In this document: one piece after another, positions 4,160-50,056 of the stretch
How positions within the stretch are numbered: position 1 is the first letter of the stretch
Layout of the letters: every line of letters begins with the position of its first letter
Source of the DNA: Octopus vulgaris
Lineage: Eukaryota
Assembly (NCBI GenBank): GCA_951406725.2
Contig: OX597833.1
Span: 31,186,001 to 31,250,000, forward strand
DNA length: 64,000 bases
Reading direction: 5' to 3'
Notes under the pieces: model-generated
The model's input: the letters and a program-made list of their open reading frames with translations, nothing else
What the model was told of the DNA's origin: nothing
The model's database searches: none
Position numbers and translations under genes: made by a program

Positions 4160-4737
4160 TGATGCTCCAGCATGACCATGGCTGAAATGAATAAAAGAAG
4201 CAAGAAGGCTTGGCAAGCCTTCGCTATTCTTCGGCCAGTATGGAAGTCCACTGCCATCTCAACTCGAACTAAACTCTGCTTATTTGGTTCAAATGTAAAA
4301 TCTGTGCTTTTGTATGGCTCTGAAACATGGAGAGCCACCTGCAGCAACTACAAGAAGATCCAGACCTTCATCAACAAATGTCTCTGGCAGATCCCCCACC
4401 TAAAGTGGTTTGACAGAGTGCCAAACACCAACCTTTGGGAAAGGGCCAACCAGGAGCCCATACATGTTCAGATTACATGTAGGAAATGGAGATGGATCAG
4501 ACAAACACTACAGAAAGAACCCTCAAATATGACATTACAAGCACTTGACTGGAACCCATGGGGGAAAAGGAAGCGAGGATGCCCGGGGCAGACATGGAAG
4601 AGGAGCATTTTGGACGAGCTCAAGTCCACTGGCCTGACATGGGAAGCAGCCAAGAAATATGCCAATGACCGCAAAAAGTGAAAAACAACTGTTGAGGTGC
4701 TATACTCCACGAGGGGCAAAAAGGAATAAGAAGAAGT
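4160..4737 (+). mobile_element. RTE-clade LINE 3' fragment (second family)
   Basis: ORF 4172-4681 has VKSVLLYGSETW, RWI...ALDWNPWGKRKRGCPGQTW, followed by an AAG-type tail. Confidence 0.85.
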
Positions 4738-4754
4738 TTAAGTATATATATAAA

Positions 4755-6169
4755 TATATACAAGATAAGAAAATGGAGAAATACATCTAAATTAAATATC
4801 AATTACCAGATAATATTCAATCACATACTTTATTAAACCACCACATAAGAGACTGTAGGGTTAAATATAAAAAAGCAGAACAAATCAGTGTACATAAAGG
4901 AATGTACATAAAAAAGTGTACATAAAAGAGTAATGTTGTATAATAAGTAGAATATATATAAAAAAGAGAATATAAATATAAGTAAATATAAATATAAGTA
5001 TAGATTAGATCTTACAGCTGTTTCGGCCATGTAGATAAGTATGTCTCATTTTACCAATATTAGCCTTTTATGGTAGGTCAATATATAGATATAAATGAGA
5101 CATTTACAAAAATATCATAAGGCCTCTTCGGAGATATACATATACATATGAGTGCATATACTCACACTCCTATACATATAAAAATATACATATACATAAT
5201 GATGTAAATAAATAATATAAATTAGTAAACATATATATGTTCCACATTCAATGTTTCAGTTTTTCAACTTAATATTGTGATAATAAACATACACATATTA
5301 GTACCTAGATGCAAATAAACAGTCAATAGTACATTATATTACTTCCTACTAATTTCCAAAGTGACATTAAAGTTAACATCATTATTGTTGTCAATACCAT
5401 TAATGCTACCATTATTATCATTCATAATATTATTAATAACGCTTACATAGGATCCAAAGTGGCACATATGTATGTCCGGATTCCAGTTAGTAATTTTCCT
5501 TATGACATAAATACACTATTGGATTTGAATTTAAATTATCATTGTCTTACTCACGGTTGGTTCATTGAGAGCCGCCTGACCTCTACCACACCGCACAGGA
5601 AAAACATCCACATCCAGCCCTAAACCCACACGTCCACATAAAAACCCACACACACATGCACACACACATGAATACACCCCGACACATCCCTACACATTCA
5701 CTAGATTGCAGAGTGTATGTCTGTCATCGCATGGCTGATAGACAAATCAGTACAGGCAGCAGTGTCTATACACTAACACACACACTCACATGCGCATCCG
5801 CATATACTCATAAATATTAATACACTCTCATATACCGTATCAGGGAACATTCGCACACACATATATACATATTTAAATATATATCTGCGCACTCATACGT
5901 ACAAATAAAACCTGGTGGTTTAATAAAGTATGTGATTGACTATAATCTGGTAATTGATATTTGATTTAGATGTATTTCTCCATTTTCTTATCTTGTATTA
6001 GTAATTTGTGGTAAATCATTTTACCTTTGCCCATATAATACAGTAAATGAATTGATTGCATCGCAATCCTTAACATTTATGTATTAACTTTGTTAGGTAC
6101 TTCACTAGCAGTATATTGGATATATGTTATCCCATGGAGGGTTGCATTTACAACCCCTATCTCAATTTG

Positions 6170-6170
<1 letters not shown>
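4755..6170. mobile_element. Non-autonomous PLE-like element with partial inverted termini
   Basis: 4760-4842 is the inverted copy of ~5914-5996. The 5960-6170 end is homologous to 9770-9972 and to 48275-48500 (reverse). Contains a hammerhead motif and is flanked by (TA)n. Confidence 0.65.
5009..5135 (-). ncRNA. Type I hammerhead ribozyme motif with ~100-nt stem II insertion (CCGAAGA core variant)
   Basis: Minus strand reads atct-CCGAAGA-ggcc...ggcc-GAAA-cagctg-TA-agat. Stems I and II pair and stem III is palindromic. Confidence 0.7.
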
Positions 6171-6202
<32 letters not shown>

Positions 6203-6296
6203 ATGTATATATATGTATGTATATATATATATGTGTATGTATATATATATGTGTATGTATATATATGTATGCATATATATGTATGTATGTATGTAT

Positions 6297-6347
<51 letters not shown>

Positions 6348-6932
6348 TGTATATATATATGTGTGTATGTGTGTGTATATATATATATATATTGTTATAT
6401 TTCGGAATGGTCATTTTGCCAGTTTAGCTAATAAAAACACACGCACTATATATTTGGTGTTACTTTGCTTCAGTGTTATTTATTTTTTACATTAATCTTA
6501 ATCTTATTTCGGCCAGAGTTCTTTCGTCACACTCCTGTGACCGCATCAGTGGTCCTTTGTTTTCTTCTTTCTTATTTGTGTCTCTCCTTACTAACCGTCA
6601 GCCATTTTGTATTTCTATTGTATGTCTTCATTTGCGCATGCTTATATCTCTATGTGCGTTTATGTTTATTTAGTGTGTGTATGTGGGGGATGCCTGTAAT
6701 ATTTGTATCTTCTGTTTATATATGTTCATGTAATTTGTAATTTTATATGTTCATGTAATTTGTATGTTGTTTTTTGATTTTTGTTTTTGTTGTTTTTGTT
6801 TATTCTTATTTTGTTCATGTGTTTACATCCACCTATTATTATCATTACATATGCTTGTATGTATGTATGTATAACAACAATACTAGTAATAATAATAATA
6901 AATTGAATCGAAAAAAAAATTAAAAAAAATAT

Positions 6933-7033
6933 TGGCCTGGTGCAGCCTTCGGGCTCCCCAGACCCCAGTTGAACCGTCCAACCCATGCTAGCATGGAAAG
7001 CGGACATTAAATGATGATGATGATGATGATGAT
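6933..7033 (+). mobile_element. Extremely 5'-truncated RTE 3' tail
   Basis: CCTGGTGCAGCC..AACCCATGCTAGCATGGAAAGCGGACATTAAA(TGA)n, the same as the RTE 3' ends at 23085-23178 and 44500-44590. Confidence 0.85.
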
Positions 7034-7071
7034 ATATACATATATACATATATACATATATATATATGTAC

Positions 7072-7117
<46 letters not shown>

Positions 7118-7128
7118 TATATAGAAGG

Positions 7129-7179
7129 AGCTTCTACAGGACTAGAACTGTTTCATTCAAGAGAAATCTTCAGGAAGCT
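7129..7179 (-). ncRNA. Type I hammerhead ribozyme motif (family X)
   Basis: Reverse complement of the 12267-12317 motif. Confidence 0.75.
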
Positions 7180-7682
7180 AGTTAACAAGAATTGTATTGG
7201 CATTTATACATTTAGGCAGGTTTAAAGGGGTGTTGGTGGGGGACTTTTTGGGGGTAGGCATAGCGCAAAATATCATACTTGGGGGAGTGGTCAAGGAGTC
7301 AGTGTTAAATTAGATAGAAGAATAAATTTAAAAAAAATAAATAAATAAAATAAAATAAAAAATAAAAAAATAAAAAAATATATATATATATATAAAAAAA
7401 AGGGGGAATAGAGTTTTAGGTAAATAAGGAGATTCTCACTTATACCTATGCACATATGTATACATATATACACACGCACGTATACACACATGTATATATA
7501 CACACACGACCACACATACATATACACACAGAAAAATATATATACACATACACACACATACACTCACATACACGCATACACACACAAATCCACACACACA
7601 CATGCACACACAGCACACTAGTCCCTATATACACATATATACACATACACACATATATACACACACATACATATACATACAC

Positions 7683-7740
<58 letters not shown>

Positions 7741-8149
7741 GTGTACCTATGCATACCTACACATACACACATATATATATACACATACAAATACAGACCC
7801 ATTCCCTAATTTTAATTTTATTATCTTCATTTATTACTTTTGTTATCTTTGGCCGCTTGGTCACAAACATCTTGGCTATGACAGCCAGTCCATTTGTCTG
7901 TCTACTGGAAAACAAGCACTCATTCACTCACGCACACTCTTTAGCACGTACACTCACTCATTCGTACACTCATACACATACACGCACGCACGCGTTATAT
8001 TCATACATACATACATCTACATACATTCACGTATATACACATACGTACGCGTACCTACAGATTCATGTCTACACTCTTAGAAGGCTAGTCTATACATATA
8101 CACCAATAAATATAAATACACACACATACACGTACACCTACATACAAAT

Positions 8150-8216
<67 letters not shown>

Positions 8217-8435
8217 CATATACATACACATATATACATACACATACATACATACACATATATACACATATACACACATATACACATATATACACACATA
8301 CACATACATACATATACACACATACACATACATACGTATACATACATACATACATCCATACATCCATACATACATACATTTATACACATACACACACCCA
8401 CATACATACATATATATACGCGCATATATATATCT

Positions 8436-8468
<33 letters not shown>

Positions 8469-8858
8469 CATATATACATATATATTCATACACACACATA
8501 CATATACATACATACATATACAAATATACGCACACACATACATACATACTCCTATACTCATACACGCACATACACATGTACATGCGTACCCATACACACA
8601 CACACACACACGCGCGCATCCATATATACACATAAGTACACCCATGCGTGAAAGTATACATATATCTATGCTTACACATACACACGCACACGCGCGCCTC
8701 CTTATATTCATACTTACATGCATACTCAAAAAATAAGTAAATAGTAAAATATATATACGCGCAGTTATTCATACATGCATACTCAAAAAATAAATAATAA
8801 ATATTAAGTATATGTACGTGCAGTTACCTATTATATAGACGGATACATACATATAAAC

Positions 8859-8911
<53 letters not shown>

Positions 8912-8984
8912 CATACATATATATATACACACAGATACATACACACACACACATACATACATATATATATACACACACACACAT

Positions 8985-9022
<38 letters not shown>

Positions 9023-9080
9023 TTACACATGTACATATAAATACACACATAGATAACTCTACGTACCTACATATACATAA

Positions 9081-9120
<40 letters not shown>

Positions 9121-9127
9121 GTGTGTG

Positions 9128-9164
<37 letters not shown>

Positions 9165-9270
9165 GCGAGTATGTAGAGATATAAGTATGTGCATGTGTAT
9201 ATATATGTGTGTATATATATGTATGGGTATGTGTTTGTGTATGTATGTATATATATATATATATATATAT

Positions 9271-9975
9271 AATACTACAAAATTAGAGAATGGAGAAACA
9301 TACTTAAATCAGTAAAACATCAACTATCCGATGATACTCAATCCATACTTTAATACACCATTACATATGAGTAAAGGCAATATATAAAATGAAATGAGAT
9401 ATACAGTAATAGTAAAAAGATAAAGAGATATAAGTAAAAAATTTCAAATATAATATGCAAATAAATCAAAGCTGACAGCTGTTTCGGCAGTGAGGACAGT
9501 CATACCTCATTTAACCTATAAGCCATAAAGGCAGGTATAAATACCTGCCTTTATGGCTTATAGGTTAAATGAGGTATGACTGTCCTCACTGCCGAAACAG
9601 CTGTCAGTTTTGATTTATTTGCATATTATATTTGAAATTTTTTACTTATATCTCTTTATCTTTTTACTATTACTGTATATCTCATTTCATTTTATATATT
9701 GCCTTTACTCATATGTAATGGTGTATTAAAGTATGGATTGAGTATCATCGGATAGTTGATGTTTTACTGATTTAAGTATGTTTCTCCATTCTCTAATTTT
9801 GTAGTATTAATTTACGGTAATATTATTACCTTTACCCATTTAATACAATAGATGAACTGATTGCTTGACAATTTTTAACATCTATGTATTAATTTTGTTG
9901 GGTACCTATCTAGCAGTATATTGGATATATATTATCCCATGGTGGGTTGAATTTTCAACCCCTATCTCATTTTAT
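9271..9975. repeat. Near-perfect palindrome C/C' (9271-9538 / 9541-9808) with tail to ~9975
   Basis: Centre GGCAGGTAT-AA-ATACCTGCC. The tail is homologous to 5995-6170. Confidence 0.95.
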
Positions 9976-9979
9976 AACT

Positions 9980-10018
<39 letters not shown>

Positions 10019-10179
10019 ATGTATGCATATACGTATGTATGTATGTACATGTGTATGTATATATGTGTGTAAGTGTGTGTATATATGTAAATGTAAGTGT
10101 GTGTGCTTGTATGAGAATGTATGTATGTTTGCACACATGTATATATGTGTGTGTATGTGTATGTGTATGTATATATATG

Positions 10180-10210
<31 letters not shown>

Positions 10211-10413
10211 GTATATATATGTATATATATGTGTATGTATATATATGTGTATGTGTGTGTGTGTGTATACATGTGTGTATGTGTATGTATGTATGTATAT
10301 ATATGCGTGTGTATGTGTATGTGTATATGTACATATACGCGTACGCTCGTGTGTTTATGTATATGTAGGTACGTAGAGTTATCTATGTGTGTATTTATAT
10401 GTACATGTGTAAG

Positions 10414-10450
<37 letters not shown>

Positions 10451-10519
10451 ATGTGTGTGTGTGTATATATATATGTATGTATGTGTGTGTGTGTATGTAT
10501 ATGTGTGTATATATATATG

Positions 10520-10556
<37 letters not shown>

Positions 10557-10976
10557 ATATATATATATATATATGTGTGTGTGTAAGTTTATATGTATGT
10601 ATCCGTCTATATAATAGGTAACTGCACGTACATATACTTAATATTTATTATTTATTTTTTGAGTATGCATGTATGAATAACTGCGCGTATATATATTTTA
10701 CTATTTACTTATTTTTTGAGTATGCATGTAAGTATGAATATAAGGAGGCGCGCGTGTGTGTGTGTATGTGTAAGCATAGATATATGTATACTTTCACGCA
10801 TGGGTGTACTTATGTGTATATATGGATGCGCACGTGTGTGTGTGTGTGTGTATGGGTACGCATGTACATGTGTATGTGCGTGTATGAGTATAGGAGTATG
10901 TATGTATGTGTGTGCGTATATTTGTATATGTATGTATGTATATGTATGTGTGTGTATGAATATATATGTATATATG

Positions 10977-11009
<33 letters not shown>

Positions 11010-11231
11010 AGATATATATATGCGCGTATATATATGTATGTATGTGGGTGTGTGTATGTGTATAAATGTATGTATGTATGGATGTATGGATGTATGTATG
11101 TATGTATACGTATGTATGTGTATGTGTGTATATGTATGTATGTGTATGTGTGTATATATGTGTATATGTGTGTATATGTGTATATATGTGTATGTATGTA
11201 TGTGTATGTATATATGTGTATGTATATGTGA

Positions 11232-11307
<76 letters not shown>

Positions 11308-11716
11308 ATTTGTATGTAGGTGTACGTGTATGTGTGTGTATTTATATTTATTGGTGTATATGTATAGACTAGCCTTCTAAGAGTGTAGACATGAATCTGT
11401 AGGTACGCGTACGTATGTGTATATACGTGAATGTATGTAGATGTATGTATGTATGAATATAACGCGTGCGTGCGTGTATGTGTATGAGTGTACGAATGAG
11501 TGAGTGTACGTGCTAAAGAGTGTGCGTGAGTGAATGAGTGCTTGTTTTCCAGTAGACAGACAAATGGACTGGCTGTCATAGCCAAGATGTTTGTGACCAA
11601 GCGGCCAAAGATAACAAAAGTAATAAACGAAGATAATAAAATTAAAATTAGGGAATGGGTCTGTATTTGTATGTGTATATATATATGTGTGTATGTGTAG
11701 GTATGCATAGGTACAC

Positions 11717-11776
<60 letters not shown>

Positions 11777-12266
11777 ATGTATATGTATGTGTGTGTATAT
11801 ATGTGTGTATGTGTATATATGTGTATATAGGGACTAGTGTGCTGTGTGTGCATGTGTGTGTGTGGATTTGTGTGTGTATGCGTGTATGTGAGTGTATGTG
11901 TGTGTATGTGTATATATATTTTTCTGTGTGTATATGTATGTGTGGTCGTGTGTGTATATATACATGTGTGTATACGTGCGTGTGTATATATGTATACATA
12001 TGTGCATAGGTATAAGTGAGAATCTCCTTATTTACCTAAAACTCTATTCCCCCTTTTTTTATATATATATATATATTTTTTTATTTTTTATTTTATTTTA
12101 TTTTATTTTTTTTTTTTAATTTATTCTTCTATCTAATTTAACACTGACTCCTTGACCACTCCCCCAAGTATGATATTTTGCGCTATGCCTACCCCCAAAA
12201 AGTCCCCCACCAACACCCCTTTAAACCTGCCTAAATGTATAAATGCCAATACAATTCTTGTTAACT

Positions 12267-12317
12267 AGCTTCCTGAAGATTTCTCTTGAATGAAACAGTT
12301 CTAGTCCTGTAGAAGCT
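12267..12317 (+). ncRNA. Type I hammerhead ribozyme motif (family X)
   Basis: agcttc-CTGAAGA-tttctcttgaat-GAAA-cag-ttctagtc-ctg-TA-gaagct, with a 6-bp stem I, short stem II and closed stem III. Confidence 0.75.
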
Positions 12318-12427
12318 CCTTCTATATAATAAATTAATTTTACTCTGCTATGTATTGAGTACCTTATTTACTGTGGTTAACCCCGAATCAACCCGGGACC
12401 TACATATATATATATATATATATATAT

Positions 12428-13325
12428 AGTAATTTATTTCTGTTAGTTTATTTACCTGTGTATTTATTATGTTTTCAGGATCCTCTATCGTCATATGTTG
12501 TGGTGTGTGTTAGTGCTCCATTCTAGTTTTCTATTCAGGCTAGGTTTATTTTCTATTATGTGTGTAGCTTCTGTGTCTCTTTAACTCTGTGGGCTCGCAC
12601 ATGCATGACACATTTCTCATTATTCTGACGAGGTCTGCCATCAAAATATTGAATTTGGCATTGTCTGCAATGGCTGAGTTCCGGTGGATCAAGTATTTTG
12701 AGGCCATAGGTTTGGCATAGTATGAATGAAGGATTTGGGTTTTATTATTCACAATTTCTAGCCAGAGTTCGGTGTCTAGTACTGGTAGTCTATGGTTGGG
12801 GTGTTTAGTGGGGTAGTCTATTGTGACCTTAATACTCTGGTGGATGGAGTTAGCTATTATTTTAAATTGTGCTTCTATGTGGTCATTATTATGTCTAGGG
12901 ATGTAGACTCTTTTGTTGAAGGGTAATGTAAAGCCAGAAATGTAGTCTATAGTATAAGATGTATAGAGGGACGATGCAGTAACAAGACAACGACATACGT
13001 AGGGGAAACGGCAAGAAGCATAGGAGAGCGGGTAAATGAGCATTGGAGACAACTCAAGGAAGGTAAAAGCTCATCGATTCTGTACCAACACGCCGAACAA
13101 GAACACGGGGGATCAATCAATAACATAGAAATTAAAATATTATCCACACATAGATCAGATGCAACAATTACACAAATTACAGAAGCTACACACATAATAG
13201 AAAATAAACCTAGCCTGAATAGAAAACTAGAATGGAGCACTAAGACACACCACAAGATATGACGATAGAGGATCCTAAAAACATAATAAATACACAGATA
13301 AATAAACTAATAGAAATAAATAACT
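12428..13325. mobile_element. Rearranged Penelope-like fragment: RT C-terminus (- strand) joined to GIY-YIG endonuclease (+ strand), with ~145-bp inverted termini
   Basis: Minus strand LPVLDTELW..YAKPMASKYLIHRNSA. Plus strand from ~12939 reads NVVYSIRC..YVGETARSIGERVNEH..TEATHI..PSLNRKLEW. 12428-12574 is the inverse of 13179-13325. Confidence 0.85.
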
Positions 13326-13388
13326 ATATATATATGTATATATATATGTATATATATATATACGTATATATATTAATTTTATAGAAGG

Positions 13389-13439
13389 AGCTTCTAAAGG
13401 ACTAGAACTGTTTCATTCAAAAGAAATCATCAGGAAGCT
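13389..13439 (-). ncRNA. Hammerhead motif (family X, stem III mismatch)
   Basis: Minus strand agcttc-CTGATGA..GAAA-cag..ctt-TA-gaagct. Confidence 0.6.
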
Positions 13440-13642
13440 AGGTGACAAGAATAGTTTTGGCATTTATACATTTAGGCAGGTTTAGGGGGACTTTTTGGGG
13501 TAGGCATGGCGCAAACTATCTTTCTTAGGGGAGTGGTCAAAGGAATCAGTGATAAAGTAGATAAAAGAATAAATAGAATAATAGAGTTTTAGGTAAATAA
13601 GGAGACTCTCACTTATACATATATATATACATGTATACATAT

Positions 13643-13675
<33 letters not shown>

Positions 13676-14499
13676 CATACATATATATATATATAAATAT
13701 ATATATATACACACACATACATACACATACTCACATACATACACACACTTATATATATATATACATACATATATACATACACATACACATGCATATACAT
13801 ACACTCACATACACACACATTTCTTCCCTTATTTTAATTTTATTTTTATTTTTATTTTTATTTTTATTTTTATTTTGACCTCGACCACCAGGCCGGCACT
13901 GATGTAAGGTCCTCCCTAGGGAGCTAGCCTAGCTGGCCTAAAGAAACCATTTATTGCCCCTCTCCCTTCCTTTCTATCTTTCTTCCCACTGATACGAACA
14001 CAAACACTCACACACGCACACACACTCACACGCACACTCATACACATACACAAACGCACGTGTTATATTCATACATACATAAGTGTACCGACTTTCACAT
14101 AAACGTACACATAACTATGTACACACAAAACCACATATATAAATGTACTTCAGTACACATAAACACACATGAACATTTGCCCGCATATATAGACGCATAT
14201 GCCTATATACAGACATTTGTGCATATAAACATACATACGCATATATACGCATCCATACGCCTTTAAGTACATATTAGCACACATGCATGCATACACGTGT
14301 ACATAAAAGCATACCTACATATATCTACCTACACACATACATATACATACATGCACGTATATACACATACGTACACGTACCTACAAATTCATATCTACAC
14401 GCATACACATACATACATCTACACACACACACAGAAGACTAGTCCATATATATACACAAATATATATATACACATATATATACATATACATATATATAC

Positions 14500-14536
<37 letters not shown>

Positions 14537-14967
14537 CACGCACGCACATACCTACATATACATACACATATATACTTACACCAGTCATATACATACCTAC
14601 ATACACATGCATCCATATATCTATACATATACATACACATATATATACACATGCACATACTAATACACATACGCATATCTACGCACATACACGCACACAC
14701 ATCTATCTACCTATATAAAAAAAAGAAACCCAACAAGTCCATACATATACACGCATACACATACATACATACATATACACATATATACCCATACATATAT
14801 ACACACATATATACACACACACATATATACACACATGTATATATATATATATATACACATACATATACATACACACACATCTACATACACATACATATAC
14901 ATCCGTACGCACACCCATATACATACATCCACACAGGTATACAGGCATATCCACACATATATATACA

Positions 14968-15016
<49 letters not shown>

Positions 15017-15142
15017 GAACGCACACAAATACACATATATACACATATATACACCAATGCACATACGCATACATAAATGTATGCGTATGTGCATTGGTGT
15101 ATATATGTGTATTTGTGTGGGTTCGTGTGTATATATATATAT

Positions 15143-15200
15143 GTCCAACCCGTGCTAGCGCGGAAAACGGACGTTAAACGATGATGATGATGATGATGAT
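15143..15200 (+). mobile_element. Tiny RTE 3'-tail insertion in arm D' only
   Basis: GTCCAACCCGTGCTAGCGCGGAAAACGGACGTTAAACGA(TGA)n is absent from the matching TA tract in arm D (~14970-15010). Confidence 0.85.
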
Positions 15201-16440
15201 ATATATATATATAGGTGTATATATATGTGTGGATATGCCTGTATACCTCTGTGTGGATGTATGTATGTATATGGGTGTGCGTACGGATGTATATATATAT
15301 ACATGTGTGTATATATGTGTGTGTGTGTATGTGCGTAGATATGCGTATGTGTATTAGTATGTGCATGTGTATATATATGTGTATGTATATGTATAGATAT
15401 ATGGATGTATGTGTATGTAGGTATGTATATGTCTGGTGTAAGTATATATGTGTATGTATATGTAGGTATGTGCATGCATGTATGTGTGTATATATATATA
15501 TATGTATGTATATATATGTATATGTATATATATGTGTATATATATATTTGTGTATATATATGGACTAGTCTTCTCTGTGTGTGTAGATGTATGTATGTGT
15601 ATGCGTGTAGATATGAATTTGTAGGTATGTGTACGTATGTGTATATACGTGCATGTATGTATATGTATGTGTGTAGGTAGATATATGTAGGTATGCTTTT
15701 ATGTACACGTGTATGCGTGCATGTGTGCTAATATGTACTTACAGGTGTATGGATGCGTATGTATGTTTATATGCACAAATGTCTGTATATAGGCATATGT
15801 GTCTATATATGCGGGCAGATGTTAATGTGTGTTTATGTGTACTGAAGTACATTTATATATGTGGTTTTGTGTGTACATAGTTATGTGTACGTTTATGTGA
15901 AAGTCGGTACACTTATGTATGTATGAATATAACACGTGCGTTTGTGTATGTGTATGAGTGTGCGTGTGAGTGTGTGTGCGTGTGTGAGTGTTTGTGTTCG
16001 TATCAGTGGGAAGAAAGATAGAAAGGAAGGGAGAGGGGCAATAAATGGTTTCTTTAGGCCAGCTAGGCTAGCTCCCTAGGGAGGACCTTACTTCAGTGCT
16101 GGCCTGGTTGGTCGAGGTCAAAATTAAAATTAAAATTAAAATTAAAAATAAAAATAAAATTAAAATAAGGGAAGAAATGTGTGTGTATGTATATGCATAT
16201 GTATGTGTATGTATATATGTATGTATATATATATATATATATATATATAAGTGTGTGTATGTATGTGTGTATATATATATATAGATATGTGAGCATGTGT
16301 GTATGGGGGTGTATATCCTCTTTTATATTTATTTTTATATATATGTGTGTATGTATGAGCATGGGTATGGGTGTGTACATAGATGTATGTAAATGGGTGC
16401 ATATGTACATGTGTATATGGATGTATGTGAGTATGTGTAT

Positions 16441-16538
<98 letters not shown>

Positions 16539-16754
16539 ATGTATACATGTATATATATATGTATAAGTGAGAGTCTCCTTATTTACCTAAAACTCTATTA
16601 TTCTATTTATTCTTTTATCTACTTTATCACTGATTACTTTGACCACTCCCCTAAGAATGATAGTTTGCGCCATGCCTACCCCAAAAAGTTCCCCACCACC
16701 ACCCCTTTAAACCTGCCTAAATGTATAAATGCCAAAACTATTCTTGTCACCTAA

Positions 16755-16801
16755 CTTCCTGATGATTTCTTTTGAATGAAACAGTTCTAGTCCTGTAGAA
16801 G
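16755..16801 (+). ncRNA. Type I hammerhead ribozyme motif (family X, canonical core)
   Basis: cttc-CTGATGA-tttcttttgaat-GAAA-cag-ttctagtc-ctg-TA-gaag. Confidence 0.78.
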
Positions 16802-17524
16802 CTCCTTCTTTAAAATAAATTAATTTACTCTGCTATGTATTGAGTACCTTATTTACTGTGGTTAACCCCGACTCAACCCGGGACCTACATATATATGTAT
16901 ATATATATATATATATATTTTTTTCTTTTTCTTTTTCGATTCAATTTATTATTATTATTACTAGTATTGTTGTTATACATACATACATACATACATACAT
17001 ACAAGCATATGTAATGATAATAATAGGTGGATGTTAACACATGAACAAAATAAGAATAAACAAAAACAACAAAAACAAAAATCAAAAAACAACACAAATT
17101 ACATGAACATATAAAATTACAAATTACATGAACATATATAAACAGAAGATACAAATATTACAGGCATCCCCCACATACACACACTAAATAAACATAAACG
17201 CACATAGAGATATAAGCATGCGCAAATGAAGACATACAATAGAAATACAAAATGGCTGACGGTTAGTAAGGAGAGACACAAATAAGAAAGAAGAAAACAA
17301 AGGACCACTGATGCGGTCACAGGAGTGTGATGAAAGAACTCTGGCCGAAATAAGATTAAGATTAATGTAAAAAATAAATAACACTGAAGCAAAGTAACAC
17401 CAAATATATAGTGCGTGTGTTTTTATTGGCTAAACTGGCAAAATGACCATTCCGAAATATAACAATATCTGTTTCAACACACGACTTCACATAAAAAATC
17501 TTGCACAACAAATATTTAAACGTA

Positions 17525-17583
<59 letters not shown>

Positions 17584-17846
17584 ATATTTATGTATCTATA
17601 TCTATATATATATATCTATGTATTAAAGGTAGAAAATGCTAAAATAATTTTATCATAAAGACCATTCTAGTACCAGTTTCAGTCATTGAGACTTTTTCAG
17701 TTCCAAGTATGGAAAACAATTAAATTTTGGAATAATTAAATGAAAAGTATTTTAAAAGAATATTTGCCTAGCATTCAAGTATAAGGGGCATTTTCCTTGT
17801 TTCTGCCTATCTTTTTCTCTCTTGTTTACCCTTGTACGTTCAAGGT

Positions 17847-17934
<88 letters not shown>

Positions 17935-17935
17935 T

Positions 17936-19486
17936 GACGGATTGCCCCTGGGAGCTTCTCTATGCTGATGACCTGGCCCTCATAGCAGAATCACTACCAG
18001 AATTGAAACGAAATTTCGGGTGTGGAAGCAAGGTTTAGAATCAAAGGGCCTTATAGTAAATGTAGCAAAGATCAAAGTTATAGTAAGCAGAAAGGTGAAC
18101 TCCTTACACATACCCTCAGGCAGGTGGCCCTGCTCGATCTGTAGGAAAGGTGTAGGTAGAAACCCTATTAGATGTACCCAGTGTAAGCTATGGACATATA
18201 AGAGGTGCAGTAATATCAAAGGAAGGCTAACTGGGAAGATAGCTTTTGTATGTGGCAGATGCTCGGGTGCAATAAACACCACAGATACTCAGAAAACAGA
18301 TTCCATCACACTCCAGGGGAAGAAACTAAAAGTAGTTGATAGTTTCCACTACCTAGGTGACCAAGTTAGTAGTGGAGGTGGATGCTCAGAGAGTGTCACC
18401 ACTAGAATACGAATAGCCTGGGCAAAGTTTAGAAAGCTCCTACCCCTACTGGTGACAAAGGGTCTCTCGCTCAGAGTGAAAGGTAGATTGTATAATGCAT
18501 GTGTGTGAACTGCCATGCTTCATGGTAGTGAAACATGGGCTGTGACTGCAGAGGACATGCGAAGACTTGAAAGAAATGAAGCTAGCATGATCCGCTGGAT
18601 GTGTAATGTCAGTGTGCACACACGACAGTGTGTAAGCTCCCTGAGAGAAATGCTGGACATAAGAAGCATCAGATGTGGTGTGCAAGAGAGACGTTTGGAC
18701 TGGTATGGTCATGTACTGCGGATGGATGAGGAGAGATGTGTGAAGAAGTAACACTTCCAAACAGTTGAAGGTATAAGGGGGAGACCTTCGAATGTTGGGC
18801 CTCACAGAGGCAATGATGAAAGACCGAGATCTCTGGAGATATGCTGTGACTGCAAAGACCCGGGCTGCTTCCTGCACCAGTTTCGCATAGTCCCAGCCCA
18901 ACCAAAGTACCTTAGATTGCAGAACGACCTGCTGTGCTTGAGGGGACCTATTGAGTCAAGTACATCAATATCAAAATAAATATCAAATGGAATTTGTAGT
19001 TATGATACCTGTGCTAGCGGCATGTAAAGAGCACCATCGGAACATGGCCAATGCCAGCACTGCCTTGGCTGTCTTCTGTGCCGGTGGCACATGACCTGCT
19101 GTGCATGAGGAGACCTATTGAGTCAAGTACATCAACATCAACATCAAAATAAATATCAAATGGAAATTGTAGTTGGGATACCTGTGCCGGTGGCACGTCA
19201 AACGTGGTCAATGCCAGCGCCGCCTTGACTGTCTTCTGTGCCGGTGACATGTAAAAAGCACCAACCAATCATGGCCCTGCCAGCCTCCCCTGACACCTGT
19301 GTCGGTGGCACGTAAAAAGCACCCACTACACTCACGGAGTGGTTGGCGTTAGGAAGGACATCCAGCTGTAGAAATACTGCCAGATCAAACTGGAGCCTGG
19401 TGCAGCCTCCTGGCTTCCCAGACTCTGGTCGAACCGTCAAACCCGTGCTAGCACGGAAAATGGGTGTAAAACGTTGATAATGATGT
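17936..19486 (+). mobile_element. RTE LINE, 5'-truncated and decayed, with 3' UTR
   Basis: [10 protein letters not shown], Cys/His finger, HGSETW, WYGHV, and the conserved GGCGTTAGGAAGG..CATCCAGCTGTAGAAA 3' end. Confidence 0.92.
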
Positions 19487-23178: not shown

Positions 23179-23214
<36 letters not shown>

Positions 23215-23223
<9 letters not shown>

Positions 23224-23870
23224 TAAATTAGAGATAAAACCATTATTAGGCAAATCAAACAGTGAAAGACATAAACCAAAACATAAAAATAAATATAATT
23301 AATATAATATACAAAATAAATAAAATATAAAATTTAAAATTTAAATTATTGTAATTTATATTTATAAATTTTTATATTTTTATATTTTTTAAATTTTAAA
23401 TTTATAAATTTTTAAAATTTTAATTTTTTAATTTTTTATTAATTAATTTATTAATATTTTTTAAACTATCAAAAAGTATTTAAAAGTTTATTATAATAAG
23501 TATATTATTATATTATATTAAACTTTTTAATACTTTTTGATAATTAAAAAAATTAATTAATTAATAAAAAATTAAAAAATTAAAAGTTTAAAAATTTATA
23601 AATTTAAAATTTAAAAAATATAAAAATATAAAAACTTATAAATATAAATTTAAGATTTTAAATTTAAATAATTTAAAATTTTAAATTGTGTATTTTATTT
23701 ATTTTGTATATTATATTATATTTTTTTAATGTTTTGGTTTATGTCTTTCACTGATTTGCCTAATAGTGGTTTTATCTCTAACTTAATTTATATTTATACT
23801 GTGAAATTTGATTTAATCCCAAATCTAATTTTTCCCTGTAAGTTTGGATATACTCCCTAATATTATTATA
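23215..23870. repeat. AT-rich palindrome E/E' (23215-23793, centre ~23503) with one-sided tail to ~23870
   Basis: Arms pair from AATTAAATTAGAGATAAAACC to GGTTTTATCTCTAACTTAATT. The tail resembles the reverse of 28755-28830. Confidence 0.88.
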
Positions 23871-24346: not shown

Positions 24347-24734
24347 CAACAATTGAGGGTAAAATTAATTAATTAATCAATTTCACCAAGTATTCAGTAT
24401 GCAAAGGGACCATTTAAGGCGAATTCAAATTATTACATTATATAAAAGGGCTTAGTAAAATAAATTACTTTGCCACATACTGAACTCATTAGAAATAGCA
24501 GCTAAAAAAAAACTTTTTAAAAAACTATTTCCAATACTTAAAGAAAATCTCTCTCATATAGTGTTTGCTCAATTCAACTCGTGAGTTGAATTGAGCAAAC
24601 ACTATATGAGAGAGATTTTCTTTAAGTATTGGAAATAGTTTTTTAAAAAGTTTTTTTAGCTGCTATTTCTAATGAGTTCAGTATGCGGCAAAGTAATTTA
24701 TTTTACTAAGCCCTTTTATATAATGTAATAATTT
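24345..24734. repeat. Near-perfect palindrome F/F' (24427-24734) with one-sided tail 24345-24426
   Basis: Centre CAATTCAACTC-GT-GAGTTGAATTG. Confidence 0.92.
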
Positions 24735-24973: not shown

Positions 24974-26265
24974 CAAGGGACGTTCAATAAGTAATGCCTC
25001 TGACCCACTTCCAGGTGTTTGATCTAGTTGAAATTTTGCATGTGCAATTACTTATATCTCTATAGATTAGGTGGCAAATTACAGCTCTGAACTAATTATG
25101 GTTTCTGCTCTACAAGTGTTTGAACTGAGTCAAGTGTGAAATGGAGCCAGTTGAGTGTCGAGCAGTGATCCGGTTTTTGTATTTGAAAGGACGCACACCA
25201 CGGGAGACTTTTGATGAAATGAAAGTAACTCATGGTGATGATGCCCCATCATATGACCTTGTAAAACGCTGGCATCGTGAATTCAAACATGGTCGGAACT
25301 CTGTGGAAACAGCTCCCAGATCTGGTCGCCCCACTTCTGCTATTGATGAGGCATCTGTCCGTCAAGTTGAGGCTGCCATTTTGGAAGATCGATGCATAAC
25401 TATTCGCCAAATAGCCCATGAGGTCAAGATTAGTACCGGGTCAGTGGAAACTATCATTCATGACCATTTGCACATGCAAAAGTTGTCTGCCAGATGGATT
25501 CCCAGGCTGCTCACACTTTTCCAGAAGCAAGAACGCATCGAATGCTCAGGGATGAATTTGGAGACGTACCAAGAAGATGAGTCAAACTTTTTCAAAAGAC
25601 TGATTACACAGGATGAAACCTGGGTCCATCACTATGATCCAGAGACCAAAGCCCAGTCAATGCAGTGGAAGCACTGTGACTCACCTCCTCCAAAGAAGAC
25701 AAGGGTGCAGCCCTCTGCTGGCAAGGTCATGCTCACAGTCTTCTGGGACCAGGACGGAGTAGTGATGACAGATTTCCTGGCAAAGGGTACCACAATTACA
25801 GGAGCCTATTATGCTTCACTTTTGAGGAAATTAAGAGAAGCTATCAAAATCAAGAGGCGGGGCAAGATCAGCGAAGGCATCCTCCTCCTGCAAGACAACG
25901 CTCCGGTCCACAACTCGCGTGTCGCCAGATCAGAAGCACAGGCGTGCGGCTATGAACTCCTCCCCCATCCCCCTACTCTCCTGACCTTGCACCCTCTGAT
26001 TTTCACCTCTTCCCAGCCATGAAGTTGTTTTTGAAAGGAAAGCATTTCCCAGATGATGCGGCTTTGATTTCTAAAGTCACGTCGTGGATGGAGGACCAAG
26101 CTGGGGTCTTTTACAAAAACGGTCTCCAGAGCTGGATCAAACAATGGGAGAAATGCCTAACTCTGAGTGGTTCCTATGTAGAAAAAGACCAATAACTGTG
26201 CCACGTTCCATTGCTCTACTGGTATGGGAAGTGGGTCAGGGGCATTACTTATTGAACGCCCCTCG
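24974..26265 (+). mobile_element. Full-length mariner DNA transposon (1292 bp)
   Basis: ~39-bp imperfect TIRs (CAAGGGACGTTCAATAAGTAATGCC.. / ..GGCATTACTTATTGAACGCCCCTCG) and TA TSDs at 24972 and 26266. Confidence 0.95.
25141..26195 (+). pseudogene. Mariner DD34D transposase with a single frameshift at ~25970
   Basis: WIPRLL, QDETW and QDNAPVH in frame. YSPDLAPSDF..YVEKDQ* continues in the shifted frame after a C run. Confidence 0.93.
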
Positions 26266-28665: not shown

Positions 28666-29004
28666 CTTCTATCTATAAATGCTCTAATATCTATACAGCC
28701 TTGGTTTTTTTATCGCATTATGCAAAAAATTCATATATATATATATATAATTAATATTTGAGGGAATAAAATCAAAAACTTACAAGGAAAAAAATTTAAT
28801 TTAGAAATACTAAATCAAATTTCACACAATATATATAAAAGATTAGAAAAAACCCCACCTTTTATCAATTCAAAATGAACAATTAAATTACACCATCTAG
28901 TAAATTACATATAATAGAAATATTAAAATTAAAATAACAATAAAATGTCAATGATTAAGTAAATTGCAAAATAATAATAATAAAAACATATATAAATTGT
29001 AGAA

Positions 29005-29091
29005 TAACGACGCGTTTTGTGGCTATATTTAAGAAATGCTTATAGTAGTAGAGAAATCACTTCGATATAAATATAGTCACTCATCAGGTCA
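29005..29091 (-). ncRNA. Degenerate hammerhead motif (GAAA to AAAA)
   Basis: tgac-CTGATGA-gtgactatattt..aaatatagccac-AAAA-cgcg-TC-gtta. Confidence 0.55.
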
Positions 29092-29150
29092 AAAATAAAC
29101 TAGAACAATAAAATAATTAATTAATAAATATACTTTAATATATATATATA

Positions 29151-30716
29151 TGAAAATACCAAATATACATAAGTGAAAATATACACATGTATATTTATTA
29201 TATGGTTAGCTTATTTAAGGAGTTTCTCTATATTTGAACCATAGGCAGATAGGATTACGGCGAGAGGCAACGACAGCGCAGAGGAAGACAGACAGATAGG
29301 ATTAAGGAGCTAAGAGAGAGGGACTACGGTATGAGGGCACTGGCTATTGTGTAACGGTATGTGTTTATTTATGTTTTGATATGTGTTAAAGAAGGAAAAA
29401 GAATTGATGTGTTGAAATGAAAGAAAGAACTGTGTAAAGACATTGTGAAAAGAGTTGTTGAAAAGTAGTGTTACAGAATTGCAGAGAGCAAAGAAAGAGA
29501 AAGACTTTAAAGAACTTTGAACTGTATCGTTAATTTTGATTACAATTTAATGACTTGTACTAGCTTTGTGTATTTTATTTAATTTTAAAGTATTGATATG
29601 AGTAGGTCAATTCGGAAACAAATGCTATGACCTACTTTGCTCGTTGTAGTCTGAAAGTCTGGAATCTAAAGTTATTGTCCTTTGTTCTGTTAGATTCACG
29701 AGCGAGTAATGGCTTTCGGAGAGACCTCTGCCCTTTTTCCGGTCAAAGAAAGTTCGAGGAAGCACCCCCATAAAAAGCAGACGTTGTGAGTCTGTGGAAC
29801 AGTCGGCCGGCAGTTCTGGCCAGAAACGGAGTGATACGGACGGTCAGCCAAGAAGGTGGCGATGGCGAAGGCGGTCAGTTGAGAAAGACAGACAGACAAT
29901 GTGAGGGATGACAAGCGAGAGAATGACAGTGAATGTGAAAGAGGAAGACAGGCAGATAGGATTACGGCGAGAGGCAACGACAGCGTAGAGGAAGACAGAC
30001 AGATAGGATTAAGGAGCTAAGAGAGAGGGACTACGGTATGAGGGCACTGGCTATTGTGTAACGGTATGTGTTTATTTATGTTTTGATATGTGTTAAAGAA
30101 GGAAAAAGAATTGTTGAAATGTAAAAGAATTGATGTGTTGAAACAAAAGAAAGAACTGTGTAAAGACATTGTGAAAAGAGTTGTTGAAAAGTACTGTGTT
30201 ACAGAATTGCGGAAAGCAAAGAAAGAGAAAGACTTTAAAGAACTTTGAACTGTATCGTTAATGTAGAACTGATTTGTCTCTGAACTATAATGTGAACGTT
30301 AAAGTGATTTGAACTGTTGTCTCTGAACTGTATCTGCATGCTTTGATTTGTTGTTTCCTTGTTTTCTTGCACGTATTTTCTTTGATGTATTTGATGTAAT
30401 AATTGTTATAAACTACTGTTGTTAAATGTAGCCAATTGCCTTCCGCCGTCTCTCTTTGTGTCTCTTCCTGCTGTTGTTTGTTTGTTGTTGTGTTATCTCC
30501 GGTCGCCGGTTGCCGAGTTCGCTGCCGCCCTCCCCTTGCCGAATTCTCCCTCTGAGTCCGTGGCGAATTCACCGTTCGATCGAGCCGGTCGATCGTCGTC
30601 GCTCGACTTGGTAGGGTCCCGTGTTTTTCCGAAGAGTTTGAGCGACGGCAGGTGATTCGTAACAGTATTTAATAATTTAAGTATTGTTTTAGTTTTCACT
30701 TATGTATATTTAGTAT

Positions 30717-30721
<5 letters not shown>
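29151..30721. mobile_element. Unclassified element with ~29-bp terminal inverted repeats and an internal ~300-bp duplication
   Basis: TGAAAATACCAAATATACATAAGTGAAAA / TTTTCACTTATGTATATTTAGTATTTTCA, (TA)n flanks, and 29245-29533 repeated at 29951-30262. Confidence 0.6.
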
Positions 30722-30764
<43 letters not shown>

Positions 30765-31210
30765 CGATAGGTGAATGAATTATCCTATGTTTACCGTCAA
30801 CATGGAAAATTCGATGAACTGATACCAGGGTAGCAAATTCACGTCAGAAACACAGTTGAAGTGACCTGTCCAAGGGTAGAAACTCCGGGTTCATGTGCAG
30901 AAATTTATGTGTTATATATGAATAAATAAATAAATGGAGTTGAATGAAGATGTTAAAAAAATTCCTTTACTCTCGACATATGTTTCGAAGACAACATGGT
31001 TTTATTCCAAAGGAATAAACGGTGCAAGATGCAATCTTCTCATCAGGAAAGAAAGGGAGCCTCTCTCAACAACAAGACAAAACAAAAATTGCAATGGCTG
31101 CCTACATGGTAACCAAAACGATAATAAGTGTTTAAAAAAACCATTAGTAGAATTGACGTCAAAGTTAGATAGTAGGAAGAGAAGGGTTAAAGGAATAATA
31201 GGTAGGGAAC
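30765..31210 (-). mobile_element. Solo 3' region/pLTR of the Nematis-like PLE family
   Basis: Homologous to 51050-51465 and 61860-62250. Confidence 0.75.
30970..31051 (-). ncRNA. Type I hammerhead motif with extended stem II (canonical core)
   Basis: ctttc-CTGATGA-gaaga..tcttc-GAAA-catatg-TC-gagag. Confidence 0.8.
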
Positions 31211-31268
31211 AATATATATATATTAAAGTATATTTATTAATTTTTATTTTATTGTTCTAGTTTATTTT

Positions 31269-31357
31269 TAACCTTATGAGTGACTATATTTATATCGAAG
31301 TGATTTCTCTACTACTATAATCATTTCTTAAATATAGCGACGAAACACGTGTCGTTA
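31269..31357 (+). ncRNA. Degenerate hammerhead motif (CTTATGA)
   Basis: taac-CTTATGA-gtgactatattt..aaatatagcgac-GAAA-cacgtg-TC-gtta. Confidence 0.55.
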
Positions 31358-31520
31358 TTCTACAAATTATATACGTTTTTATTATTATTTTTTGCAATTT
31401 ACTTAATCATTGACATTTTATTGTTAGTTTAATTTTAATATTTCTATTATATGTAATTTACTAGATGGTGTAATTTAATTGTTCATTTTGAATTGATAAA
31501 AGGTAGTTTTTTTCTAATTT

Positions 31521-31624
<104 letters not shown>

Positions 31625-31844: not shown

Positions 31845-32525
31845 GTGAAAAATTTGATATTAATTTAATAATACCATCAATTTAACACCAAGTGGCTTAG
31901 CACATAAAACCAGGGAGACAATATAAATTCATACATAAATATAAGAGAGTGACCACTATGTGATTAACTCTAGTGCTAAAAATAGCTCCGTTACTGGTAT
32001 AGCCACAAAAAGTTGTTTCCAAGAAGAAATAACATTACATTTAATGTAAGGAAAGTGAAACATAACGAAAAAATAGATTAACCCTGAACAATTGTTTCAT
32101 TATTAATGTAATATGCAATTTTACTTACATAACATCTATAAATCATCGGCAGAGGTTTGTCTTGAATACAAATTATTAGATCTTCATGAGTGTCTTATCA
32201 TTCTTTTGGCGGGGGAATTTGAATCATAACTACGAATACAATCGATTAAACCACACGTGTATTTGACGCTCGTGATGGTCTAATAAATTGTATTTAAGAC
32301 GAACCTCTGCCGATGATTTATAGATGTTATGTAAGTAAAATTGCATATTACATTAATAATGAAACAATTGTTCAGGGTTAATCTATTTTTCGTTATATTT
32401 CACTTTCCTTATGTTAAATGTAATGTTATTTCTTCTTGGAAACAATTTTTTGTGGCTATACCAGTAACGGAGCTATTTTTAGCACTAGAGTTAACCACAT
32501 AGTGGTCACTCTCTTATATTTATAT
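31845..32525. repeat. Inverted repeat H/H' (~31932-32205 / ~32263-32525) with ~60-bp spacer and one-sided tail
   Basis: ATAAATATAAGAGAGTGACCACTATGTG pairs with CACATAGTGGTCACTCTCTTATATTTAT. Inner arms CATCGGCAGAGGTT / AACCTCTGCCGATG. Confidence 0.9.
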
Positions 32526-32536
32526 ATAATTATATG

Positions 32537-49102: not shown

Positions 49103-50056
49103 AGCTCGCAAGGAATGAAGCCAGTAAGATCCAATGGATGTGTAATGTCAGTGTGCATACTCAACAGAGTGTAAGTATCTTGAGAGAAAAGTTGGATCTA
49201 AGAAGCATTAGATGTGGTGTGCAAGAGAGACGACTGCGCTTGTATGGTGATGTGGCGAGAATGGATGAGGATAGCTGTGTGAAAATGTGCCACATCCTAG
49301 TGGTTGAGGGAACCTGTGGAAGAGGTAGACCCAGGAAGACTTTGGATGAAGTTGGTGAAGCACGAGAAATGACTAGTGACCAAGACGTTTGGAAATATGC
49401 TGTGCTCGAGAAGACCCGGCAAGCCAAATGAGACCATAACCCGTGGCCTATGCCAAGGGTGTAACCAGCCTGCTTATGTGTACCTTTTTCCTTCTTTGGT
49501 CACTAAACTCTGCTTGCAAAGACCTGTTGAGGCAAGTTTAATCAAAATCAATTCGATGACTGGCATCCATGCTAGCGAGGTGCAAAGAGCACCATACGAG
49601 AGTGATCATTGACAGAGCGGCTATTCGAGTATGATCGTTACTAGCGTCGCCTTACTGTCACTTATGCCTGTGCTAGTAGGGTGCCAGGAGCACCATCCGA
49701 GCGTGATCGTTGCCAGAGCAGCCAACTGGCGTCCGTACCCGTGGCACGTAAAAGGGCACCATTCGAGTGTGATCGTTACCAACGTTGTTTCACTGGCACC
49801 TGTGCCGGTGGCACGTGTAAAAAGATTCGAGCGAGGTCATTGCCAATACCGCCTAACTGGCCCCCGTGCCGGTGGCACGTAAACAAAATCTACTACACTC
49901 TCGGAGTGGTTGGCGTTAGGAAGGGCATCCAGCTGTAGAAACTCTGCCCGATCAAGACTGAAGCCTGGTGCAGCCATCTGGTTTGCCAGCCCTCAGTCAA
50001 AATCGTCCAACCCATGCTAGCATGGAAAGCGGACATTAGACGATGATGATGATGAT
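49103..50056 (+). mobile_element. RTE LINE 3' fragment with 3' UTR
   Basis: MCNVSVH..GRGRPRKT, the conserved 3' end and (GAT)n. Confidence 0.9.

Follow-up and report, generated by a model that had tools for sequence, protein, structure and literature searches.

Nested Penelope-like element insertions in an 11-kb interval of the Octopus vulgaris genome, with inverted arms probably primed on both strands of (TA)n tracts

A 64-kb window of the Octopus vulgaris genome (64,000 nucleotides of contig OX597833.1 of GenBank assembly GCA_951406725.2, positions 31,186,001 to 31,250,000 of the forward strand; coordinates without a locus prefix refer to this window) contains five inverted-repeat pairs within positions 6392-17524, which we find to be four insertions of Penelope-like elements (PLEs) belonging to three families, here termed P, B/D and C. 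There is little doubt that these PLE insertions are nested, and we propose, as the best and a probable explanation of the whole, that the arms of the four nested insertions come from two complementary DNAs (cDNAs) primed on both strands of one (TA)n tract. An initial annotation, made from the sequence alone, had described five nested fold-back elements; all five inverted pairs were recovered, but two of them, A and 'PLE IR', proved to be parts of one element. Moreover, what it took for a separate fold-back class consists of copies of three protein-coding PLE families, and its inventory lacked two 3' stubs of long interspersed nuclear elements (LINEs) at 6933-7031 and 15143-15200.

The inverted pairs were called from a self-BLAST of the window together with a global alignment of each arm pair, and display identities of 97-99.6% across 146-1,960 bases, far above chance expectation. 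They comprise pair A (6392-6930 / 16919-17467; three substitutions per approximately 537 aligned sites), pair B (7112-~9085 / ~10350-12334), pair C (9270-9539 / 9540-9809; one substitution per 268), the 'PLE IR' pair (12429-12574 / 13179-13324; six substitutions per 146) and pair D (13374-15075 / 15076-16820; seven differences per 251 in the terminal part). The one-sided tails noted earlier are upheld: only one arm each of A, B, C and D bears an additional tail, of approximately 57 (A'), 69 (B'), 169 (C') and 68 (D') bases. The arm partners carry independent substitutions and indels, so that they cannot be one mirrored read. With a slash standing for a head-to-head junction and EN for the endonuclease end, the nest can be written as P[ A (TA){LINE, B[../..(TA){C}..]} EN' / EN (TA){D[../..{LINE}..]} A' tail ], with the following parts:

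6392-6930, minus strand: outer part ('A') of the P tail-less arm, an inverted pseudo-long terminal repeat (pLTR) with a hammerhead-like core; its outer end abuts the host (TA)n.
6933-7031, plus strand: 3' stub of a non-LTR LINE with a TGA-repeat tail, inside the internal (TA)n of P (from self-alignment).
7032-7111, no strand: element-borne (TA)n tract of P, left arm, the portion outside B; other copies have it between the GIY-YIG 3' end and the pLTR.
7112-9085, minus strand: B tail-less arm, consisting of the pLTR and ~1.7 kb of microsatellite-like family 3' region.
9086-9269, plus strand: unpaired 5' extension of the B tailed arm, left of C; contiguous with 9980-10345 in family copy L129.
9270-9539, minus strand: C tail-less arm.
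9540-9809, plus strand: C tailed arm, 5'-truncated within stem II of a hammerhead-like motif.
9810-9978, plus strand: C tail of 169 bases, then (TA)n.
9980-12334, plus strand: B tailed arm with the hammerhead-like core CUGAAGA...GAAAC...GUA at ~12273-12317.
12335-12403, plus strand: B tail of 69 bases, then (TA)n at 12404-12428.
12429-12574, minus strand: P tail-less arm continued, an inverted GIY-YIG C-terminus and 3' untranslated region (UTR), the left arm of 'PLE IR'.
12575-12930, minus strand: P tail-less arm continued, a reverse transcriptase (RT) thumb piece (12575-12858) and an RT N-terminal piece (12865-12930).
12927-13324, plus strand: inner part of the P tailed arm, a GIY-YIG endonuclease (111-aa open frame; PF01541, E 4e-4, below the curated cut-off) and 3' UTR.
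13325-13373, no strand: element-borne (TA)n of P, right arm, the portion left of D.
13374-15075, minus strand: D tail-less arm, an older subfamily of B (pLTRs 92% identical).
15076-16820, plus strand: D tailed arm, with the LINE 3' stub 15143-15200 in its internal (TA)n and a hammerhead-like core near 16759-16803.
16821-16888, plus strand: D tail of 68 bases, then (TA)n at 16889-16918.
16919-17467, plus strand: outer part of the P tailed arm (A'), a pLTR with a hammerhead-like core near 17308-17347 and an open reading frame (ORF) start codon at 17443.
17468-17524, plus strand: P tail of ~57 bases holding N-terminal codons of the ORF, then host (TA)n.

The unity of element P emerged from a genome search with A', in which the 10 kb upstream were examined for 20 of the 29 other best copies. 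Since the GIY-YIG end adjoins the (TA)n tract, and this tract the A arm, in 13 of these 20 loci (the remaining seven being truncated in or just before A), A/A' and 'PLE IR' constitute a single insertion. The window copy maps piecewise onto one natural near-full copy, L037: its tail-less arm runs through A, (TA)n, the GIY-YIG end, the RT thumb piece and the RT N-terminal piece, these RT pieces being joined by two internal deletions with microhomologies of 3 and ~7 bases, and its tailed arm through GIY-YIG, (TA)n, A' and the tail, such that each arm holds ORF sequence absent from its partner. They meet head to head at four bases, TGTA (12927-12930), a junction seen only at this locus among 40 scored of 628 candidates; the tail-less arms of 14 other P loci end at, or a few bases from, the point of the element at which that of the window ends. 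The pLTR of P holds the ORF start and the tail extends it: 27 codons run from 17443 through the tail, and in locus L009 the same frame continues into the 5' region of the ORF. Frames for RT (with YVDD) and GIY-YIG are present in the family copies L037 and L042, with Pfam scores (RVT_1 E 1.7e-3; GIY-YIG E 4e-4 to 1.4e-3) that both lie below the curated cut-offs. A 39-base duplication common to A and A', first taken as private to them, is a subfamily trait.

One could instead regard the inner block, that is the GIY-YIG inverted repeat plus D, as older cargo inside a younger A/A' pair, or the A arms as homogenised by gene conversion, given that they differ at only 3/537 sites, the lowest value of 13 P pairs, versus 6/146 in the GIY-YIG arms and 7/251 in D. 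However, the order GIY-YIG, (TA)n, A is the P family's own on both sides; an A arm lies downstream in none of 19 D-family loci; no second instance of the P junction occurs among the scored candidates; and rates of private substitution (below) do not differ significantly. Furthermore, the A arms share only two rare variants, both in the ambiguous duplication, and therefore harbor no converted old tract. Consequently, we judge either version of this alternative to be very unlikely. Even less credible is an assembly or library artefact, in the form of inverted chimeras or mis-joined repeats, as the source of part of the stack. The order of the locus does rest on assembly-internal evidence, the interval being 11 kb of repeats with no independent spanning read among the data examined, yet the substitutions and indels that separate the arms occur at family-typical rates, dozens of other loci have their tail-less ends at identical positions of the element, C interrupts B exactly in a family (TA)n, and the junctions show microhomology. 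At 90% identity, contigs of four sequencing runs contain the families, which were seen in organisms A, B and D; the internal-deletion breakpoints of P coincide with loose ends of family contigs in these runs. No piece bridging the P junctions is among the contigs listed for the four runs at 90%, which is evidence neither way, and the stretch 12865-12924, uncovered at 99% identity among the pieces listed for the four runs, is a hole that proves nothing; two runs were covered to 76-80%.

B and D represent one family, with pLTR and tail 92% identical. B frames for RT and GIY-YIG were recovered from L129, L125 and L128, and those of C from L131 and L133; in both, YRDD frames are followed by GIY-YIG-type frames that match the PLE proteins of the window in tblastn, and Pfam returned no RT or GIY-YIG match for them. 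A non-autonomous nature of B was considered and ruled out, as B family copies reach the GIY-YIG end and the RT. The microsatellite-like ~2 kb of the B arms is family sequence common to the copies and part of a ~3.5 kb 3' region; the corresponding region of C measures ~2.3 kb. Candidate copies in the 2.8-Gb assembly number at least 358 (P), 992 (B), 2,525 (C) and 1,262 (D), these counts being lower bounds with arms counted separately, and among the 40 scored per query the pLTRs are 100% identical to the window for B and 99-100% for C. We regard the three families as active, and C as young. Individual C loci show considerable variety: L133 (G000:C5:115,297,500-115,307,499) is a single insertion whose hairpin arms each measure at least 4.6 kb and are 99.8% identical, ~10 kb in total, with the 5' part of the ORF only in the inverted arm; in L142 and L140, one arm consists of three segments or has lost a large internal portion; and in L140 and L094 the tail continues into a next unit, as a partial tandem. 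In L094, the sequence beyond the C tail resembles the 5' region of the ORF.

We then compared the two arms across family loci. Upstream of the tailed copy, 22 of 29 C, 16 of 24 B, 14 of 29 P and 4 of 19 D loci contain a partner arm (the B count omits six of 30 loci, L075-L080, seen within ±1.5 kb only, D was viewed within ±1.5 kb throughout, and the window's own matches are omitted). Every one of the 55 partners with a visible outer end is tail-less, in agreement with the earlier statement that PLE insertions often have an inverted tail-less copy. Among the 22 C pairs, the tail-less arm has more than 50 bases missing from the tailed arm in seven, the reverse holds in nine and six are about equal; this excess is thus balanced in direction (7 versus 9, p=0.8), with the longest extra sequence in a tail-less arm reaching 2.9 kb (L137). 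Likewise, the tail-less arm holds sequence lacking in the tailed arm in six of 12 B loci (L113, L123, L126, L128, L129 and L130) and, for P, in L035, L042, L046, L049 and the window. This favors two separately primed cDNAs over a snap-back of one. The arms of C pairs also share minor variants (21 shared versus 14 differences in 22 pairs; 26 versus 17 in eight pairs), so that one donor feeds both arms at these loci. Those head-to-head junctions that could be read cleanly, a part of the total, overlap by 0-6 bases.

In light of these observations, we posit that the GIY-YIG endonuclease would nick both strands of a (TA)n tract, whereupon one 3' end would start reverse transcription at an outer site, yielding the tail, and the other at a fixed inner site, yielding none. 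Both cDNAs would copy the RNA of one donor toward its 5' end, stopping or jumping independently, and could then join head to head via 0-6 bases of microhomology. That the two arms of an insertion are made as two separate cDNAs is, by itself, a reasonably likely proposition. A PLE protein has been shown in vitro to cleave and extend both strands, using two start sites separated by the tail (PMC11167929). Several considerations weigh against this proposal and temper its evidence. The same in vitro work reports no start-site difference between the strands and does not by itself predict a strict one-tail rule. The C, B, P and D loci are best matches to the window rather than a random sample, and no target-site duplication is readable at the element ends, because these ends lie in (TA)n. 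A partner arm is strictly the nearest sequence in only one of 13 P pairs and in 7/22 and 3/8 of the C pairs; in L140 it is the tailed arm that extends further 5', an internal deletion accounting for the difference; and in L133 the outer end of the partner is cut off by the region edge. Deletions across the center are common in long palindromes. Such a deletion after insertion could also leave the tail-less arm longer.

This last point connects to the alternative that nested PLE insertions obtain their inverted arm by fold-back, through either cDNA snap-back with later center deletions or self-priming of an antisense transcript, with the endonuclease leaving the tail on one end. The near-perfect centers of C and D in the window and of 6/22 C loci fit such an origin, as do the donor variants shared by the arms and the short inverted microhomology at the junctions, which is also compatible with self-priming; an antisense self-priming model was put forward by Arkhipova et al. 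2013 (PMC3846280). However, plain snap-back forbids extra sequence in the tail-less arm, and yet seven of 22 very young C loci have it (up to the 2.9 kb of L137), each P arm of the window contains sequence absent from the other, and the balanced direction of the excess likewise does not accord with it. Accordingly, the fold-back synthesis assumed in the initial annotation fits poorly, and we consider this alternative rather improbable. How PLEs make the inverted arm is still stated to be open in the available parts of PMC8557442 and PMC11167929. Young, abundant families such as C offer natural end products by the dozens to thousands, from which fold-back and double priming can be distinguished, and the one-tail rule (55/55) provides a sharp constraint for in vitro work.

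With respect to targeting, TA follows the tail in 101 of 107 family copies (B 30/30, C 28/29, D 19/19, P 24/29), and the tail-less ends adjoin (TA)n in all 12 B and 11 C cases. The (TA)n targets lie within the 3' regions of the P and B/D elements themselves: B and a LINE stub occupy the tract of the P left arm and D the same tract in the right arm. The flanks of C are contiguous in L129, which places C in the (TA)n of the B tailed arm, ~190 bases from the B junction. Because (TA)n is thus part of P and B/D themselves, each insertion adds targets, and does so in both arms. The (TA)n-targeted insertion suspected earlier is hence confirmed, along with nesting fed by such tracts, but the target lies inside element 3' regions and is not regenerated at the hairpin center; none of B, D or C entered at or near a center, as had been supposed.

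We infer that P inserted first, that D then entered the right arm of P and B the left one, and that C entered B, with the LINE stubs arriving at any time after their host elements. Private substitutions, counted per arm against family copies, amount to 9/1,825 in P (A 3/1,017; ORF parts 6/808), 6/552 in D, 0/862 in B and 1/698 in C; P and D thus form one older class and B and C a younger one, which fits the nest. Raw arm differences point in another direction, with 3/530 in A as against 5/146 in the inner GIY-YIG part (p=0.014) and a contrast of P with D at p=0.038. This younger look of the outer A arms fades with private substitutions (A versus ORF p=0.20; P versus D p=0.13), and as the dating does not prove that P preceded D, that step rests on anatomy instead.

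To place the locus in context, we used as background 400 kb outside the window (100 kb flanking it and 300 kb from three arbitrary places) and defined a signature in which one end adjoins TA and the other bears a tail plus TA, which occurs in 3.8% of random intervals. At ≥95% identity there are 12 inverted pairs, six of which (five insertions) have the signature, accounting for 2,706 of 4,340 arm bases. Lowering the threshold to ≥90% raises the number of pairs to 83, the majority of which belong to a single dispersed repeat and the tandem array of it; eight have the signature (3,153 of 17,827 arm bases). An array of ~33 units of 184 bases at L169 (G000:C5:60,092,000-60,098,000) derives from a dispersed repeat that makes up most of the ≥90% inverted pairs in that block. 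A clear core lies inside or near the arms of only 3/14 hairpins checked, so that not all signature hairpins are proven PLEs; a criterion of a PLE ORF within 3.5 kb was not used for background hairpins, the loci compared being PLE-enriched. A foreign hairpin lies within the span in one of 29 paired loci (L128, C inside B). Nests being rare among paired loci and single hairpins common, the three-deep nest is an upper-tail case of a common process; the locus is real and mostly ordinary, being explained by known PLE biology, and it is of value for its arm statistics, which can serve to test double priming, and for a possible link to editing substrates. Other nests are a C hairpin in B (L128:3584-5911) and a B-type hairpin at the P TA tract (L041:8943-9377), and further element contacts were seen by eye in L039 and L042.

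Much of this anatomy has precedents in endonuclease-containing (EN+) PLEs, where inverted tail-less copies, PLE-in-PLE insertion and a (TA)n bias are known already (PMC8557442, PMC3846280). The likeness extends to an RT with a C-terminal GIY-YIG domain, a pseudo-LTR holding the ORF start, a head-to-head inverted truncated copy, a tail at one end and simple-repeat targets, and Pen2a_Av inserted in Pen3 in Adineta vaga is one such PLE within another (PMC3846280). In contrast to the 30-40 bases described for those elements (PMC8557442), tails here measure 57-169 bases; the regions between ORF and pLTR are long (C ~2.3 kb; B ~3.5 kb and microsatellite-like) and contain (TA)n targets; and nesting reaches three levels, with insertions in each arm of the outer element. 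Clades were assigned from the motif lists in PMC8557442. By these motifs, P appears to be of the Neptune or the Nematis type: its endonuclease frame has the CX2-5CxxC finger, as CX4CxxC before GIY-YIG, and CCHH, and it further has DKSG, corresponding to the DK(S)G of these clades. It differs from them in a long Asn-rich N-terminal stretch in the frame L037:1734-3944 (minus strand), which resembles the N-rich inserts described for Adineta Penelopes (PMC3846280). B/D and C appear to be of the Hydra type, in that a CxCX5C linker precedes GIY-YIG in the B and C frames and not in P, CCHH is absent by inspection from their endonuclease frames, which have one Cys between the GIY and YIG halves, and C shows SDKT (DKT in Hydra), with RWR in place of RWK; the N-terminal part of B was not recovered. 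The (TA)n targets are a further point of likeness, and Hydra-1_Obim is an octopus Hydra family with a (TA)n preference (PMC8557442 File S1); elements here, however, exceed 5 kb as against 'generally <3 kb' for the clade (PMC8557442).

Poseidon of Anolis (PAc) in vitro offers the closest biochemical counterpart, with cleavage and extension of both strands, two RT start sites separated by the tail and AT-rich targets, but it belongs to another clade, and the portion of the paper available does not trace the inverted arm to two cDNAs (PMC11167929), a point that the arm statistics address here. Foldback or MITE (miniature inverted-repeat transposable element) DNA transposons, such as the palindromic Harbinger of Xenopus, are also self-complementary and give double-stranded RNA (dsRNA) without a neighbor (PMC5625713). 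The asymmetric one-end tail, variable 5' ends and RT plus GIY-YIG frames in place of a transposase led us to reject this identity. In L1 twin priming, primers from the two target strands yield an inverted 5' part joined through microhomology. The L1 arms copy non-overlapping parts of the RNA, in contrast to the present case, in which one region is copied into both arms, starting at two fixed sites, and a palindrome results. In the literature searched, which excluded most subscription papers, no paper was found on nested PLE hairpins in cephalopods or on PLE twin priming, and the available part of bioRxiv 10.64898/2026.07.22.740005 has no passage on priming.

Minimal hammerheads occur in PLE pLTRs (PMC4209133), and hammerhead-like cores were spotted by eye in the pLTRs of the P, B/D and C families. 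In the B/D motif, stem I has 5 bp and stem III 4 bp in the minimum free energy fold, B and D differing only at N7 and in loop II; position 9 of the P motif is C, not A; and the window C copy, 5'-truncated within stem II, lacks the CUGAAGA core. An Rfam search of three pLTR pieces gave no hammerhead match and the folding z-scores of the motifs (-1.2 to 0.7) are not significant; a strict hammerhead descriptor likewise missed the B, D, P and C motifs. Rfam on 4500-18500 returned only microsatellite-driven microRNA matches below the gathering threshold. A second hammerhead-like word (CUGA-N-GU) lies at 13880-13960 and 16040-16125, in a G+C-rich island of the D arms; its fold is not significant.

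The paired columns of the locus sum to ~4.3 kb and, if transcribed, it would fold into stems of that extent, although the locus as such shows no host function. By rough scaling from 5-7 in 400 kb, signature hairpins may number some tens of thousands genome-wide, a testable source of editing substrates. Exceptional near-perfect dsRNA potential and hyper-editing have been described in octopus, whose repeats were left unanalysed, and a lizard Penelope is heavily edited (PMC5625713); the part of PMC9989829 available adds nothing on Penelope. A tentative and on balance doubtful extension is that double-primed PLE hairpins with their own (TA)n are the main source of near-perfect dsRNA in this genome and explain octopus hyper-editing, with (UA)n edits written back as sense-strand TG. 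The signature in 6/12 pairs at ≥95% supports them as a dsRNA source; its share of only 3,153/17,827 bases at ≥90% weighs against it. On the sense strand, the internal tract of P has 16 TG and no CA (12 arms), as compared to 222 TG and 274 CA in host target tracts, and the B' tract has 354 TG and 35 CA, the bias toward TG being noted at window positions 9980-12010 and 15076-16570. This is suggestive and could stem either from A-to-I edits being written back or from slippage after a single ancestral change in each family. An ADAR-type excess is absent from the copy variants of C (A>G 10, T>C 13) and P (30 and 15, as expected from composition), and those of B (A>G 62, T>C 46, but G>A 53) we read as TA/TG slippage. 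Inspection of ORFs in 264 kb around the locus, which would miss small exons, recognised no host exon except one ORF with a WW and two PTB domains, and among the sequencing runs listed none is recorded as RNA. This intronless frame of at least 546 aa (L150:1-1641, G000:C20:31,136,001-31,137,641; Pfam), ~55 kb left of the nest, we take to be Fe65/APBB-like and possibly a retrocopy.

Other repeats populate the window. An older diverged relative of C occupies 4758-6170 (arms 4758-4843 / 5913-5998, 96.5%, tail to 6170); the TA/TG tract immediately after this tail is where P inserted. The LINE stub at 6933-7031 matches the 3' termini of five LINE copies (19395, 23082, 40118, 44498 and 49963) at 78-88%, and the RT of that LINE matches RVT_1 in Pfam. 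Penelope-like frames of other families are found at 50021-50902 (plus strand, GIY-YIG end) and 52543-54315 (minus strand, RT plus endonuclease). Mariner-type transposase pieces (Pfam) lie at 25129-26192 (plus strand) and decayed hAT-like transposase pieces, by eye, at 33303-34889 (minus strand). Four further hairpins, with arms at 84-97%, span 23211-23798, 24427-24734, 28829-31531 and 31921-32535, the third of which contains, near 31046, a hammerhead-like core with a long stem, found again near 61984.

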